A stretch of DNA of 64,000 nucleotides. Origin: a virus. Its lineage: Duplodnaviria > Caudoviricetes. How positions within the stretch are numbered: position 1 is the first letter of the stretch; the number at the start of each line of letters is the position of its first letter. Under the pieces are notes generated by a model, which was not told the DNA's origin, searched no databases, and saw only the letters and a list, made by a program, of their open reading frames with translations. Both the position numbers and the translations under genes were made by a program. Location: the IMG/VR virus record IMGVR_UViG_3300020577_002484, positions 1 to 64,000 of that record; one strand, written 5' to 3'. Below are positions 14,247-21,788 of this stretch, in pieces.

Positions 14247-14288
14247 AATTTGTCTTTCATTTGTTTGTGGTAATGTTACCAAGTACAG

Positions 14289-14362
14289 TAGCAGAGACAG
14301 GGATCGAACCTGCGACCGACGGATTAGAAGTCCGTTGCTCTATCCAACTGAGCTACTCTGCC
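14289..14362 (-). tRNA. tRNA-Arg(UCU), no encoded CCA
   Basis: Cloverleaf GGCAGAG...ACGGA-CTTCTAA-TCCGT...GGTTCGATCC...CTCTGCT-A; A20 present. Confidence 0.95.
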
Positions 14363-14366
14363 AAAC

Positions 14367-14558
14367 TCATCTCTTTTTGTTGTTACCAGACCTAGGATTC
14401 CAACCCTCACTTTGACCTAACTTATTAAGTTCATTTCTGGCTTTATTAACGTCTCTTTTATCCTTTTCTTCTTTTAGGCGACGTTTTAGAGTGTGTACTG
14501 AAATACCTAAGTCCCTAGCTTGCTCCTCTAGCGTTTTCTTTTGCATTGGAACCTTCAA
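14367..14558 (-). CDS. Small HTH-like protein
   Basis: LEEQARDLGISVHTLKRRL. Confidence 0.55.
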   Translation of the reverse strand: MKVPMQKKTLEEQARDLGISVHTLKRRLKEEKDKRDVNKARNELNKLGQSEGWNPRSGNNKKR

Positions 14559-14863
14559 ACGGTATGCGTACCAAGCACACCACGACTATCCCGTTCGTTG
14601 GCTCGTTGTGCCAACGCCATCAGGGCGAGATTGAGATGGCTGATAGCTAGTTTGTTGGCTTCGTTGGCGAACTGAGTAGTCTGGAAGTGTTCCAGCCGCC
14701 CTTTGGCTGCTTCAATGATGTCAGAGACAAAGGCTCCATTTTGAGGAAGTTTGTTAGGCTCCCGGCCCAAAGGACCATTTTGCCAACCAATGGCGAATCC
14801 TGGGCCAAAGGTAGTGCCACCACTAGGTTTCCCATCAATCAGATTGTGATACTGTTCGATCAT
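14555..14863 (-). CDS. tad1: Tad1-like anti-defence signal-sponge protein
   Basis: WQNGP...QNG..SDIIE....RLEHFQ...F...AN..A..HL..AL....QR...R..RGVLGT matches the recalled Tad1 consensus; ATGA coupling at 14860-14863. Confidence 0.75.
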   Translation of the reverse strand: MIEQYHNLIDGKPSGGTTFGPGFAIGWQNGPLGREPNKLPQNGAFVSDIIEAAKGRLEHFQTTQFANEANKLAISHLNLALMALAQRANERDSRGVLGTHTV

Positions 14864-15474
14864 GCTTCGCCTTTCTTTGGTTTGAACTCCCCACACCATC
14901 CGTTTTTATATGTGTGGGGGAACTCAGCGTTCAGTGGGCTGATGTAACCTTTGAATACAACTTGAGGAGGGTATCTCCTACAGTCTCCAGCCCTGCCACC
15001 ATCCCTCATCGTATTAAGGAAGAAGATACAGTCTTTACATTGACCACTCATGGTTTGTGTCCTAGCAGTTGCTAGGATCTGATCCTGATGGTCCTTCCAC
15101 TCTAGGCCCACACTCTCGTGGGCACTGTCCTCTTTGGTATGGTCATAGTGTTTGCACTCATAGGGCTTGACAGTATGGATGGTACAGAGACCATCTTTGA
15201 GGAAGGTGCAGACACCGGTTGGGTCTTCAGGGTACATACCACCCTTAACTGATTTGTCTGAAGCTGGGGCAAGGACATAAATGTTGGGAATGTCTACCCA
15301 ATAGTCCACCGAGAGATGTTTCTGGAAGAACTCCTCCAAGGTCATGTTGAGATAGGCTGCGGCTTTCTCGGCCTCTCCGGGTGCGAACCAACCCGGTCTA
15401 TGGGAACAGGCTGATTTACAATCATCACATTGACACTCAATAGTATCGTCGAGAACAGGAAGGGTCATGGTCAT
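14860..15474 (-). CDS. YkgJ-like Zn/Fe-cluster protein with a second Cys-rich domain
   Basis: CQCDDCKSAC, CTFL...LCTIH..KPYEC; C-terminal CKDC...CRRYPP...WCGEF. Confidence 0.7.
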   Translation of the reverse strand: MTMTLPVLDDTIECQCDDCKSACSHRPGWFAPGEAEKAAAYLNMTLEEFFQKHLSVDYWVDIPNIYVLAPASDKSVKGGMYPEDPTGVCTFLKDGLCTIHTVKPYECKHYDHTKEDSAHESVGLEWKDHQDQILATARTQTMSGQCKDCIFFLNTMRDGGRAGDCRRYPPQVVFKGYISPLNAEFPHTYKNGWCGEFKPKKGEA

Positions 15475-15713
15475 ACCTCCAAATTTTTGTGTATATCCTG
15501 AAGGGACTTAATGAGTAACTTGAGTTGGTCCTTGGTAATGTAGGCTGAGTGCTTGCCATCGGTCACTAAGCAAGCACCTAGGTAAGGTTTGAAGTCGAGC
15601 AAACTTACTCGATCCACCGTTTTCTCTTCTGAGTCTCGGAGGAGGATGTTAATCCTAACATGCTCCTGATCATCCTCAAGTCCAACTTCAATGCCAAGTG
15701 GTTTTATACTCAT
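15471..15713 (-). CDS. Hypothetical protein
   Basis: Coupled ORF with GGAGG RBS. Confidence 0.65.
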   Translation of the reverse strand: MSIKPLGIEVGLEDDQEHVRINILLRDSEEKTVDRVSLLDFKPYLGACLVTDGKHSAYITKDQLKLLIKSLQDIHKNLEV

Positions 15714-15750
15714 TCTGCATCCTCCTCTAAATGTGGTAGTGTCACCATAG

Positions 15751-15824
15751 TGGGAAGGGTGGGACTCGAACCCACAACCAACAAATTATGAGTTTGCTGC
15801 TCTGACCGATTGAGCTACCTTCCC
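15751..15824 (-). tRNA. tRNA with CAU anticodon (elongator Met or lysidine-type Ile2)
   Basis: GGGAAGG...GCAAA-CTCATAA-TTTGT...GTGGG-TTCGAGT-CCCAC-CCTTCCC-A. Confidence 0.92.
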
Positions 15825-15897
15825 AAACCCACAACGACGCTTAAGCTATGATCGTTGTGGGGCCATCTTGACAGAGAATTCTCTGACAAGACGGTAG

Positions 15898-15989
15898 TGG
15901 AGAGGGTGGGAATCGAACCCACAACCCACACAATTAGGTTAATCGGAAGGGAACCTAATCGTGTGTTCTACCGTTTGATTTACCTCTCC
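15898..15989 (-). ncRNA. tRNA-like element with an 18-nt expanded anticodon arm
   Basis: Perfect acceptor stem and T-arm; degenerate D-stem; 14-bp anticodon hairpin with 11-nt loop. Confidence 0.75.
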
Positions 15990-16135
15990 AGAGTGTAGCG
16001 TGGTACGCAACCTAAGCTGCAATAGCTTTTGATAGATACATCACGCTACATCTGACCATCACCAAACTAACTTTTCCCTGTGAGTGTCCTCAAGACCTCA
16101 CACGTAATAGGTGGGAGGTGATGATCCTCGCGAGT

Positions 16136-16786
16136 TTACTCTTTCCGAAACTCATTGAACCTCATCTCGATAGCATAAAGTGTATTACACACAAGAGACG
16201 TTGAAACACCCATTTGGTAGGCTACCTCTTTTTGAGTGTAGCCTTGCTTAAGTAGCTTGATGATCTGTAACTCACGATAGTTTTTGATTGAGCGATCCAA
16301 ATCCTCAAGCAATTCTTCCGTATTACCATTAGATAACCCGATGTCAACCTCGTTAGGGTCAACGTAGGTTATCTTGACTGGACAATGATCCCCTCCCTTG
16401 CTGTTCAATAATAAGCTCCTGTTGCCAAGAATCTTATTATTCATGAACGCTACGAAGTCTTTGCACCTAGTGTGCATCTTCGCAACTGCAAAACCAGTGA
16501 AGTTATCATCGTACATTTCTTTTATCAGGTCGCAAGCCTGACAGACACCAGTTACTGCTTCTGACAGCAGATCATTACCAAACTTTGGGTAGAAGAAGGA
16601 ATACTGTGAGGCCACAACGAAACAAAGTCTCAAGTGTCCTTGGACCAGATCGGACTTTGCGGTACTGTCGCCACTCTTCAATCGGAGCACCAAACTCTTA
16701 ATCTGTTCTTCTGTTAGGTCTTTGATCTTGTCACTTAGAGGGCTTCTTATGCAACCCTTGCGTGACTTGCGTCTGAATAAGTACAT
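16136..16786 (-). CDS. Sigma70-family RNA polymerase sigma factor
   Basis: GDSTAKSDLVQGHLRLCFVVASQY (region 2) and YTQKEVAYQMGVS (region 4 HTH). Confidence 0.8.
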   Translation of the reverse strand: MYLFRRKSRKGCIRSPLSDKIKDLTEEQIKSLVLRLKSGDSTAKSDLVQGHLRLCFVVASQYSFFYPKFGNDLLSEAVTGVCQACDLIKEMYDDNFTGFAVAKMHTRCKDFVAFMNNKILGNRSLLLNSKGGDHCPVKITYVDPNEVDIGLSNGNTEELLEDLDRSIKNYRELQIIKLLKQGYTQKEVAYQMGVSTSLVCNTLYAIEMRFNEFRKE

Positions 16787-18130: not shown

Positions 18131-18652
18131 TTACTCCTGTACAGTGGTGGCTTTGGCCTCTTCGAGACACTCAGGAGTGATCTCGATACAGGTGTCAGCC
18201 ACAGCACGCAGTTCGCGAGGAATGCCACAAGACACGATAGTACACTTTTTACCGCGTGCTTTGACGTACTCAACGATCGGAGCAAGTTCAGGATCGGACG
18301 AGCAAATAGCAACAATGTCCAGCTTGTCAATCATATTGACAACATCCAGAGCAATGCTAACATTCCAATTCGTCTTAATAAGACGAACTACTCCATCCCC
18401 TCCTTGTCTTGATCTCGGTTGTTTGTACTTAGGCTCAAAGCCAATCTTCTTCAGACAAGTTATGAACTTGGTTGCTTCATCCTTGGCCTGAACACCATAA
18501 GCCACAGCACGGTAAATGGTATCACTACCTACAACTAACTCTCGCAACTGCCCATAGTCCAACTTCCTGTCAGGGAATTTCTTCCCCACACAGTAGAACA
18601 GACTACTAACATCAGCAAAGATACCGACAGTTTTCATACTCAGATTTGACAT
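18131..18652 (-). CDS. NYN-domain (LabA/DUF88, PIN-fold) protein
   Basis: IFADVSS, IALDVV, SSDPELAPIVEYVKARG, LRAVAD. Confidence 0.85.
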   Translation of the reverse strand: MSNLSMKTVGIFADVSSLFYCVGKKFPDRKLDYGQLRELVVGSDTIYRAVAYGVQAKDEATKFITCLKKIGFEPKYKQPRSRQGGDGVVRLIKTNWNVSIALDVVNMIDKLDIVAICSSDPELAPIVEYVKARGKKCTIVSCGIPRELRAVADTCIEITPECLEEAKATTVQE

Positions 18653-18677
18653 CTTTTCTGTCTTTCAACAATAAAGC

Positions 18678-21600
18678 CTACCCTACGTTAATCTGACACT
18701 GTGGTCCATCACAGTAGAGTTCAGCTTCCGGGTTTGAATTTGTTAGTTCACTCCAGTCGATAGGTTGTATCTGTTTGATACGGTGGTTATATTCTTCTTC
18801 TGTGATACCCTCTTCAGGCATTTGCTGGTAAACACCAGCAGCCGTATGAGGCAACAAAGAAACAGACTTGGTGAGAGGGGCAATTGAAGACAACACATTC
18901 TCAATGTCATCTTCCTCGTGTTTGATATTGTAGGTATACAACTTGACATCGACAGGGGTTCGAGTCTCGTTACGAGTTACCTTAATCTTGTGAAAAGAGT
19001 TCTCACTCTCATGCTCGATCTCATCGAAATCGAATCCATAGTCGTGAGCAATCTTTTTCGCAGATTGGAGGGTATCAGCAGTAAAAAGGTGTTTTACCAA
19101 TACCCACTTAGGCTTGAAGTATAAAGTGTTTGATACGGCGTTATCCGCCCACTCTCTCTGAAGAACAATGATGTTATTTGATTGTTCCCAAACAGTAACT
19201 TCCTCCGCTGGCTTGGCTGGGCCTTGGATGATTGGGAACTCGAAAACATAAGTTCTCGTCGGATCAGTAACATCAGGTTCATGCGGAACTCCAGCCTTCA
19301 CCAACAGTTTGAAGATAGGCTGGAACGTGGCGACTCTGACTCTGCGAACCGTCCACTTGAACGTAGGATAACCAGCACCTGAAGTCTTGCCAGCCAGTTT
19401 TGGTGTAGTACCACCTGGCTTGCAAGTTGTCTTACGAATAGCCTCAGGAACTCCGGCCTCTCCATTGGCCCAACGGTTCGTGTCACAAACAACCTCGTAA
19501 CCTTTACGCAACAATGCAACAACCTTGTTCAACTCCGAGTTGTGTTTCCAACCTGTGAAGTCGACCAAGGACACGCCGATTCGGCGATTCTTGGCGACAA
19601 CCTTGTTTGTAGACTTCCTGTGCGTCGGTAGCAGCGACACTGTTGAGCAGTAGAAGGTAGCATACTCACAAGCTTTGAGCCACTGTGCATCATTGTTGCA
19701 ACGTGTGGGCAAAGTTTCAGCCAGATTACACACTTCACGATGCTCAAGTGGTATTTCACCACAGTTAGAAACATTGCATCCTTGGGCCCAGAAAGTATGA
19801 CTCGGACCATTGACAGTAATGTCCCAAGTCTCTTCCTCGCCAAGATACTCCTCAGACAAAATCTCATAAGTCAATTTTGACTTGTTGTTTTTACCAGTAC
19901 CATTTACAATTTTCTTGAGCTTTTCAGTTTTGTAGTTCTGAATGAACCCAATGTATTTGTAGAACACATCTCTGTCTGTAGAGATTTGAAGATTCCAAGA
20001 GTCTCGGCAAAGATAGGTACCATTACCAAACTCAATAATCTTACCTTCTTCCTTGGTATAGTATGATCTGATCCCTAAGGCGGACAGCATCATCTGAGCA
20101 GCTTCAATCACTTTGAATGATGAAGCCTTCAGACATACTCTACCACGAATCACTGAACCATTGGCAGAATACAAACCACGAAGGAACCCAGCCATCTTGG
20201 ATGGGTTACAAAGGTAGAACCTTCCATCAATAGTCCGTTCATAGGTAAGCGGCAGCCTATGGATAGTAGTCTTAACCTTGTGACAGTAGTCCTTCGAGTA
20301 GGATTCACCAATCAGGTGTGCCACCTCACTTAAGAAGTAGTCATGGTCATTGGCACCAATGTTTAGGCAGACATGGTTATTCTCTTGAGATCCATCCCCA
20401 ACCACAAGACCGTCCATAATATCTTGAGGGTCAAGCTGATCGGTAGCAATACCGGCTGGGCCTTCCAGAACATCAATTCCAAAGGCATCCTTAACTTCAA
20501 CCTTCATACCTTCACAAACTACTCTATGGTTAGCTGTCCCATAGAATACATTTGCGTTGGTCCTATAGGCAAAGACAGGGTTGACACCTGTTGACCACTT
20601 TTTCTCAATAGTAACCCATCCATCTTCTGACCAAATCTTGGAGCCAACGTCAACCTGATCAAAGGTAGTAATACCATTTGGAGTTAGTACCTTTGATGAC
20701 GCTCTTAGGCAAGGGTTCATACCAGTGGCATAGTCCTTCCTTGCATATTCTGTCTTACCAATGCGTCCCAAAGGGAGGTTCATCGAATTGATAAAGCCGG
20801 GTTCACCATTCTTAATCACTCTACGAGCGATCTCACCCAACTGTTGAAAATCCTCAGGTTCTTCAAGCTTGACAGAATTGTTACTCATGTAACCAACTTC
20901 TGCACGGTGTGGGAACGTCGTGTAATCCTTGAGATTCATAAAGGTCTCATCATAGATGCTACCACTAAGGATCTCAGCACTACGTCTTACGTTCCCAGAT
21001 ACCACGCAACAGCCTGTGGCATTCATAATGTCAGACTTGAGCAAGATGGTATCATAGTATGGATCTTCCAGATACATACGCATGTACTTGTCAATCCTAT
21101 TATGAAGTTCAATCAAGGGTCCGGGACCAGAAGCGACCCCGCCAAATCCTTTGATAGGTTCACCCTCAGGTCTGATCTCATCATAGATGAATCGTGGTCG
21201 TGAGCAACCCTTGGTAAGATAAGACTCAATAAGAGACTTAGTAGAGTCGCACCACCCTTCGCGAGAGTCTTCGACGACAAAGTCTCGTCCATTGCTCTTT
21301 GGTGAGAATACCTCAAGACCGGATCTGAGTGGTTGGGCACCAACTCCAACTCCATTCATTAAGCAGTCCATGGCCCAATGGATGTCGTCACCAATCACAT
21401 CAGTGAGATTGGTGAAAGCACAATTGTACAGAGCCATCGCACCACGTTGATAAACGAACTCTGTTCCCATAGCCCACAGTCCACGTCCCGGCGGGAGCCA
21501 ATACATATTGAACATGGAAATGGCAAAACCCAAAGCATAATGCTGCCACTGAAAGTCATCCCAGAACAGATGATTCTTGATGTAATGGTCCTTACGGATG

Positions 21601-21788
21601 GACATTACACCTTCAGTAACACGAATTACACAATCAGCCCACGACTCCATCTTACCATTTAGCATCATCCTTGAATAGTGTTTATAGAAGATAAATTCGC
21701 TGAACTGACCATACCCGAAGTTCGCGGACATGGAACGAATTGTATCTTTAGTTTGTTCTGCAAGCACAAACCTCTGCGTTACATACAT
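18678..21788 (-). CDS. nrdJ: Class II (B12-dependent, RTPR-type) ribonucleotide reductase containing an intein
   Basis: PPGRGLW, LYNCAF, GNVRRSAE, NP/CGEIPL, KPGGT. Confidence 0.92.
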   Translation of the reverse strand: MYVTQRFVLAEQTKDTIRSMSANFGYGQFSEFIFYKHYSRMMLNGKMESWADCVIRVTEGVMSIRKDHYIKNHLFWDDFQWQHYALGFAISMFNMYWLPPGRGLWAMGTEFVYQRGAMALYNCAFTNLTDVIGDDIHWAMDCLMNGVGVGAQPLRSGLEVFSPKSNGRDFVVEDSREGWCDSTKSLIESYLTKGCSRPRFIYDEIRPEGEPIKGFGGVASGPGPLIELHNRIDKYMRMYLEDPYYDTILLKSDIMNATGCCVVSGNVRRSAEILSGSIYDETFMNLKDYTTFPHRAEVGYMSNNSVKLEEPEDFQQLGEIARRVIKNGEPGFINSMNLPLGRIGKTEYARKDYATGMNPCLRASSKVLTPNGITTFDQVDVGSKIWSEDGWVTIEKKWSTGVNPVFAYRTNANVFYGTANHRVVCEGMKVEVKDAFGIDVLEGPAGIATDQLDPQDIMDGLVVGDGSQENNHVCLNIGANDHDYFLSEVAHLIGESYSKDYCHKVKTTIHRLPLTYERTIDGRFYLCNPSKMAGFLRGLYSANGSVIRGRVCLKASSFKVIEAAQMMLSALGIRSYYTKEEGKIIEFGNGTYLCRDSWNLQISTDRDVFYKYIGFIQNYKTEKLKKIVNGTGKNNKSKLTYEILSEEYLGEEETWDITVNGPSHTFWAQGCNVSNCGEIPLEHREVCNLAETLPTRCNNDAQWLKACEYATFYCSTVSLLPTHRKSTNKVVAKNRRIGVSLVDFTGWKHNSELNKVVALLRKGYEVVCDTNRWANGEAGVPEAIRKTTCKPGGTTPKLAGKTSGAGYPTFKWTVRRVRVATFQPIFKLLVKAGVPHEPDVTDPTRTYVFEFPIIQGPAKPAEEVTVWEQSNNIIVLQREWADNAVSNTLYFKPKWVLVKHLFTADTLQSAKKIAHDYGFDFDEIEHESENSFHKIKVTRNETRTPVDVKLYTYNIKHEEDDIENVLSSIAPLTKSVSLLPHTAAGVYQQMPEEGITEEEYNHRIKQIQPIDWSELTNSNPEAELYCDGPQCQINVG
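19764..20711 (-). mobile_element. Intein (316 aa) with LAGLIDADG homing endonuclease
   Basis: CLRASSKVLT...TWDITV..PSHTFWAQGCNVSN/C; DGLVVGDGS and GFLRGLYSANG blocks. Confidence 0.92.

Follow-up and report, generated by a model that had tools for sequence, protein, structure and literature searches.

What would a phage do with a gene that keeps the acceptor stem and T-arm of a tRNA and carries a long closed helix in place of the anticodon arm? The question is raised by a locus of 92 nt within a window of 64,000 nucleotides, the whole stretch of DNA analysed here, which is part of a 76.9-kb IMG/VR virus contig estimated to be about 82% complete. The contig is that of a tailed phage and encodes an HK97/P22-like capsid, a portal, a terminase, a family A DNA polymerase, a helicase, a primase, a class II RNR with an intein and an NYN nuclease. 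Its genome is compact, about 91% of it being coding, and the genes surrounding the element lie on the minus strand.

Anatomy and setting of the tRNA-like gene

The coordinates of the element, of its parts and of its structured neighbours are collected in Table 1, where RNA position p corresponds to window position 15990-p on the minus strand. The acceptor stem is perfect (7/7 bp), the discriminator is the A at 15898, and the elbow and tertiary-contact nucleotides U8, A14, G18G19 and A21 are kept. The D-stem is degenerate, as the initial annotation had stated: only U12-A23 and C13-G22 are paired in the ARAGORN drawing, and C25 and A26 pair with G45 and U44, lengthening the central rod at the expense of the D-stem. 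The arms of the long helix run from 15965 to 15952 and from 15940 to 15927 around a loop at 15951-15941, and the repeat search gives the same arms. This helix consists of 13 Watson-Crick pairs and one imperfect pair, which reads G-U on the minus-strand RNA and A-C on the plus strand and so fits minus-strand polarity. The MFE fold recovers the acceptor stem, the T-arm and the long helix at -37.3 kcal/mol (z = -3.6), and one of 200 shuffles folds equally well. Sequence, fold and repeat search thus agree that the element, first recognized by its perfect acceptor stem and long anticodon-arm helix, is real. It is intergenic and overlapped only by ORFs of 43-47 aa. Its gene-encoded 3' end is A-CUA and not CCA, and the neighbouring tRNA(CAU) likewise lacks an encoded CCA.

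Table 1. Positions of the tRNA-like gene, its parts, neighbouring RNA features and its orthologue
Feature	Position	Strand	Basis or remark
tRNA-like gene, 92 nt including discriminator A	15898..15989	(-)	sequence, fold, ARAGORN with introns, covariance model
Acceptor stem, 5' strand GGAGAGG	15983..15989	(-)	sequence, MFE fold, ARAGORN drawing
D region	15966..15982	(-)	2/4 stem pairs left; ARAGORN drawing
14-bp helix and 11-nt loop replacing the anticodon arm	15927..15965	(-)	MFE fold, repeat search
18-nt insert	15939..15956	(-)	sole register leaving a conventional loop; ARAGORN intron length 18
T-arm GUGGG-UUCGAUU-CCCAC	15906..15922	(-)	5/5 T-stem, canonical T-loop
Acceptor stem, 3' strand CCUCUCC	15899..15905	(-)	sequence, MFE fold, ARAGORN drawing
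Hairpin abutting the 5' end of the element	15990..16053	(-)	fold of the gap
Two hairpins separating the element from tRNA(CAU)	15828..15894	(-)	fold of the gap, repeat search
Canonical tRNA(CAU), closest paralogue	15751..15824	(-)	ARAGORN, Rfam (75.8 bits), covariance model
tRNA-Arg(UCU), the only other tRNA of the contig	14288..14362	(-)	ARAGORN, Rfam
Orthologue in IMGVR_UViG_3300034152_000094	L087 1501-1613; also L146 10240-10353		intact D-arm, about 40 extra nt centrally

A 7-nt anticodon loop on a 5-bp stem is absent from the element as transcribed and is obtained only after removing 18 nt. ARAGORN, one of the checks suggested in the initial annotation, missed the element at default settings and, once introns were allowed, called it at default stringency as a tRNA interrupted by 18 nt of intron, a length equal to the excess originally noted in the anticodon arm. 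The Rfam tRNA model RF00005 (gathering score 29) did not reach it, any tRNA match lying below a 28.3-bit tmRNA match and being suppressed. Excision of 15956-15939 leaves the predicted loop UU-CCU-AA (Arg), and the first three bases of the insert, AGG, pair with CCU. The complementarity of UUAGGUU and AACCUAA leaves more than one splice register possible, with CCU, ACU, AGU and AGG as candidate anticodons; CCU is the only one that avoids A34 while giving U33 and A37. The determinants of tRNA-Arg for ArgRS of the E. coli type are C35 with U36 or G36, plus A20, the latter being a major determinant in E. coli. In the CCU register the element has C35 and U36, and position 20 is a U; the phage tRNA-Arg(UCU) has A20.

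The element lies in a non-coding gap of 422 nt between a 216-aa HTH/sigma-like gene (16136-16786) and an 80-aa ORF (15471-15713). This gap folds as seven successive structured domains (z = -7.4), in the order two hairpins, the element, two hairpins, tRNA(CAU) and a small hairpin before a strong ribosome-binding site. Within 15734-16126 (minus strand), one hairpin directly adjoins the tRNA-like gene at its 5' side and a second lies 2 nt before tRNA(CAU), both being possible processing sites. No promoter or terminator signal above background was found between the structured domains. The product of the 216-aa gene has no homologue among 5.8 billion proteins, and the best homologues of a neighbouring 204-aa product are found on contigs of 0.8-1.6 kb. 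About 1 kb from the element, an ORF of 114 aa (14555-14899, minus strand) shares 37% identity (E = 1e-11) with a protein, encoded by a relative, that bears the Pfam Acb2_Tad1_hairpin domain, and has no direct Pfam match at E <= 0.01; it is the gene described at the outset as Tad1-like, and the relationship held. Neither RNA ligase, RtcB nor Pnkp was found among the scanned ORFs, in which only a T7-like DNA ligase and the NYN nuclease were seen. At 18131-21788 (minus strand), the class II RNR gene with its LAGLIDADG intein is followed by that of the NYN-domain nuclease, a pair that is syntenic in all five relatives fetched (5/5).

Paralogy and relatives

The element is most closely related to the neighbouring tRNA(CAU). 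Their T-arms match at 16/17 positions, the 3' 42 nt are 88% identical, and tRNA(CAU) scores 44 bits against a covariance model built from the element. With the 18 nt removed in silico, 85-92% of the element's length aligns colinearly, at 76-78% identity, with tRNAs for Ile, Met and Lys from phages; with the insert retained, only the T-arm matched. This colinearity identifies it as a class I tRNA, a diverged paralogue of tRNA(CAU). The 3' 24-mer occurs mostly in tRNA-Ser genes and attP sites, yet an origin from tRNA-Ser was rejected on two grounds, the body having no long variable arm and aligning with the class I Ile, Met and Lys tRNAs. Compared with tRNA(CAU), the element has acceptor pairs 3 and 4 exchanged and differs in four of the five anticodon-stem pairs, every change being compensated. 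The duplication proposed initially therefore stands as paralogy and falls as a recent copy, and the compensated differences indicate a long history under structural selection. CAU and CCU are one substitution apart. AGA and AGG make up 31% and 19% of the phage Arg codons (together 50%), and the other two tRNAs read AGA (Arg UCU) and AUG or AUA (CAU), so that an AGG reader would have been sensible historically.

No near-identical copy of the element was found in IMG/VR, in the JGI metagenomes or in GTDB (one genome per species), and exact-pattern scans of IMG/VR, JGI metagenomes and GTDB genomes returned only a single orthologue, chance matches and unrelated tRNAs. The capsid family of the phage comprises more than 570 IMG/VR relatives at 44-57% MCP identity, 70 of which were covered by a covariance-model search. 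Its sole non-standard match is a gene of 113 nt in G017, a phage at 57% MCP identity. A degenerate pattern for the 5' half of the element likewise picks out G017 as the one further record in IMG/VR, and the 3' pattern is present there as well (L146). The acceptor stem of this orthologue is identical to that of the element, the T-arm matches at 16/17 positions and the D-arm is intact. Its central domain is unrelated and non-canonical, an interrupted arm of about 15 bp being followed by 18 unpaired nt, and no single excision or single intron gives a cloverleaf. The flanks of the two genes are not conserved, and the tRNA(CAU) genes of the two phages are unrelated in sequence. Conservation of the long stem in relatives had been put forward as a test; the top half is kept, and the stem itself is replaced by a different central domain. 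Acceptor stem and T-arm are thus nearly constant, and the central domain is free and non-canonical in both members. Only these two members are known, and the perfect 14-bp helix of the element could simply reflect a recent insert.

The element is absent from the other capsid-family records of the 70 searched and from four further relatives sharing the RNR-NYN pair, which makes it dispensable for the clade. Other relatives with this synteny carry ordinary tRNAs only, or none, and the closest syntenic contig (RNR 66% identical) stops before the tRNA region.

Several unusual tRNA loci were encountered in the course of these searches. In L087, the orthologue is followed at about 1676-1732 by a second, degenerate tRNA-like copy, and both contain the insert module CAUGCCC-loop-GGGC..GAU..UGG(G/A)UUAUCAU, which matches no Rfam family. 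Another relative, G001 (IMGVR_UViG_3300028384_001071, L226), has tandem tRNA genes at 70855-70985 and 71054-71178 with inserts of 57 and 42 nt; they head a cluster of seven tRNAs, their inserts have a GG(A/G)UUAUC motif in common with the G017 module, and the anticodons forced on them by ARAGORN (AAG, AUC) are implausible. The module common to G017 and G001 is not present in the window. In a related phage (Logan SRR30862820_62528, L235 21085-21350), a 3' tRNA half made of T-arm and acceptor 3' strand lies 17 nt ahead of its matching 5' half; next come an anticodon stem-loop of canonical form with CCU and an acceptor/T-arm minihelix standing on its own. This arrangement, uncalled by ARAGORN, resembles a tRNA gene that is permuted or split. 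Upstream of the tRNA(CAU) genes of relatives (L235 17861-18600 and L237 17481-18200), long non-coding leaders contain the repeated motif (G)TGAATCTGG, a possible phage promoter or operator. Finally, an unrelated phage contig of 323 kb (IMGVR_UViG_3300043754_000129, L121 5532-6570) has four tRNA genes with anticodon-loop inserts of 50-57 nt, three of which visibly hold a T-arm-like hairpin, as in the introns of Lak megaphages.

Comparison with known introns and tRNA-like RNAs

Group I introns possess a self-splicing core, P1-P9, and typically measure 200 nt or more; the 18-nt insert is far too short for this class and matches no Rfam intron family. The BHB motif consists of two 3-nt bulges at the splice sites with a 4-bp helix between them. 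Archaeal and eukaryal BHB introns resemble the insert in being short anticodon-loop insertions that pair with the anticodon. They are bulged, however, whereas the 14-bp helix of the element is continuous, CUAA running straight into the 3' stem strand, and the element resides in a tailed phage whose features are of bacterial type and in which no splicing endonuclease was seen. The statement that neither group I nor BHB hallmarks are present is therefore upheld. Removal by RNase III was also considered and rejected. If 18 nt are excised around a loop of 11 nt, so that 11 + a + b = 18, the offset b - a is always odd and a 2-nt 3' overhang cannot arise; the conventional CCU register would give a 3-nt 5' overhang, and the helix has only 14 bp against the roughly two helical turns of an RNase III-type hairpin.

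The nearest published parallel is found in Lak megaphages, whose tRNA genes carry 'enigmatic' introns that are too small to self-splice and whose removal mechanism is unexplained (Devoto et al. 2019, PMC6784885). As in the element, these introns interrupt the anticodon loop and are found only by tRNA finders allowing introns. The two Lak inserts seen in Table S6 of that study measure 79 and 93 nt and each contain a T-arm-like hairpin (PMC6784885); compared with these two entries, the insert described here has only 18 nt and no embedded T-arm, does no more than lengthen the anticodon stem, and interrupts a tRNA body whose D-stem is degenerate. It was not assigned to the Lak type.

Among tRNA-like RNAs, the tRNA-like domain of tmRNA (RF00023) likewise combines an acceptor stem and T-arm with the lack of a D-stem and a long helix where a tRNA has its anticodon arm, and the rod of the element, extended by C25 and A26 at the cost of the D-stem, resembles it in this. 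The alignment of the element to the Rfam model scores 28.3 bits, below the gathering score of 47, and the element has no G3-U70, no tag reading frame and no pseudoknots, measures 92 nt and is not called as a tmRNA by ARAGORN, so this class was set aside. A match to YrlA/bacterial Y RNA (RF02553) reaches 36.8 bits against a gathering score of 69 and is an artefact, because it spans the element and the next tRNA with a 76-nt gap. The loop contains no CCUCC that would allow an anti-SD role, nor does it point to an antisense role, since matches to its complement elsewhere in the genome do not exceed 7 nt.

Phage tRNAs also serve in counter-defence: the T5 tRNA-Lys is used against PARIS (PMC11464382), and phage tRNAs are used against retron effectors (PMC11555353). 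The element shares with them its phage-encoded tRNA-type gene, its place in an accessory region and a possible link to host factors that target tRNAs. Those tRNAs are functional decoders that replace cleaved host tRNAs (PMC11464382, PMC11555353), whereas the element has no open anticodon loop and so could act only as a decoy. A literature search for a demonstrated function of tRNA mimics of this design returned only true tRNAs acting against PARIS, retrons and similar systems.

Decay, splicing or mimicry

The features assembled above could be those of a tRNA gene in recent decay, limited to this copy: a CAU-type paralogue and former decoder whose anticodon had become CCU, which lost its function when a few nucleotides were inserted into the anticodon loop and which now drifts, its D-stem eroding first. 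We regard this as doubtful but serious. A D-stem with two of four pairs is rare, one as weak occurring in 3 of 486 predicted phage tRNAs; the Rfam score for tRNA falls short of the gathering score, most relatives are without the element, A20 is absent though the phage tRNA-Arg(UCU) has it, and a 6-nt direct repeat, CGAUUA, flanks part of the insert, as slippage or insertion might leave. The damage is nevertheless confined: the three off-consensus bases, which cost two pairs, all lie in the D-stem (a chance of about 0.002 by our own calculation), none of the 52 other paired positions is disrupted and every tertiary-contact nucleotide is kept. Moreover, at 57% MCP identity and with diverged flanks, the orthologue keeps the acceptor stem and T-arm, which is not expected of neutral DNA, and a compact genome should shed dead DNA. 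Alternatively, enzymes of the host or the phage might excise the 18 nt and rejoin the halves into a 74-nt tRNA(CCU) reading AGG, with the hairpin masking the anticodon until the RNA is processed. The intron-permitting ARAGORN call, the single register with U33, CCU and A37, and the colinearity with real phage tRNAs of the insert-free sequence alone all agree with such a protein-spliced mini-intron; the tidy UU-CCU-AA loop and the weight of AGG among the Arg codons, alongside tRNAs for AGA and for AUG or AUA, fit a spliced decoder, and insert-bearing tRNA genes recur in the phage clade and elsewhere, as published for Lak phages (PMC6784885). We still find splicing unlikely. No known signal is present, the insert being too short for group I, its helix continuous and the embedded T-arm of the Lak type missing; parity excludes the RNase III overhang; the ligation enzymes were not found among the scanned ORFs; the D-stem is weak and A20 missing; and the orthologue, with its different 'anticodon stem', has no single-intron solution.

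A purely cis-acting role is a further, very improbable explanation, in which the tRNA shape would be a cut site for RNase P and RNase Z or a protective 3' structure for the mRNA of the upstream 216-aa regulator. The position of the element among seven back-to-back structured domains between two genes of the same strand, with no promoter or terminator signal above background between the domains, agrees with such a role. A genuine tRNA 72 nt downstream already provides a site of this kind, however, and the sealed 14-bp rod and the exact acceptor sequence of the orthologue would be left unexplained. Among the roles proposed in the initial annotation (decoy, punctuation mark or pseudogene), the choice is thereby narrowed: the conserved top half and the differing core of the orthologue speak for a functional non-decoding RNA and against simple decay. 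A top half that is conserved above a free-running central rod argues against a simple intron as much as against a plain pseudogene.

The reading that we prefer, and hold tentatively, is that of a processed, non-decoding tRNA mimic whose function resides in its top half. From the observed anatomy, paralogy to tRNA(CAU), orthologue and conservation pattern, we infer the following course of expression and processing. Transcription on the minus strand would produce the element as one of the consecutive structured RNAs that separate the 216-aa gene from the 80-aa gene. The intact acceptor stem, T-arm and elbow of the element would allow its release by RNase P and 3' trimming, and since the gene encodes A-CUA instead of CCA, a host enzyme would add the CCA. 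The product would be an RNA of about 95 nt with the top half of a normal tRNA and a rigid 14-bp rod as its lower half, in which the former anticodon CCU is base-paired, so that it could not enter decoding. The top half might then bind or occupy proteins that recognize the acceptor, T-arm or elbow. In its most attractive version, the mimic would draw off host factors directed at tRNAs, as a decoy or sponge encoded in an accessory neighbourhood of anti-defence-like genes, and the setting among small accessory genes, including the Acb2/Tad1-related ORF 14555-14899, points weakly to this role; in a weaker variant, it would serve purely in cis as an RNase P cut mark.

To our knowledge, cut-and-rejoin splicing of tRNAs has not been described for bacteria or their viruses. 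It is quite unlikely that the 18 nt are a genuine mini-intron removed along this route by proteins in a bacterial host; if they were, the gene would represent the smallest form of the route, an anticodon-masking hairpin with splice sites 2-5 bp from the loop, and would point to a tRNA splicing activity new to bacteria. Phage tRNA genes are weapons against host systems that target tRNAs (PMC11464382, PMC11555353). Should the element prove stable, with its top half conserved and its anticodon sealed on purpose, phages would have in it a tool of another kind, a mimic engaging tRNA-binding proteins outside translation. Under either reading, such genes are missed by standard annotation. Given that short inserts were present in about 2% of the tRNA calls across some 1.7 Mb of fetched phage DNA, the tRNA repertoires of phages may be systematically under-read.
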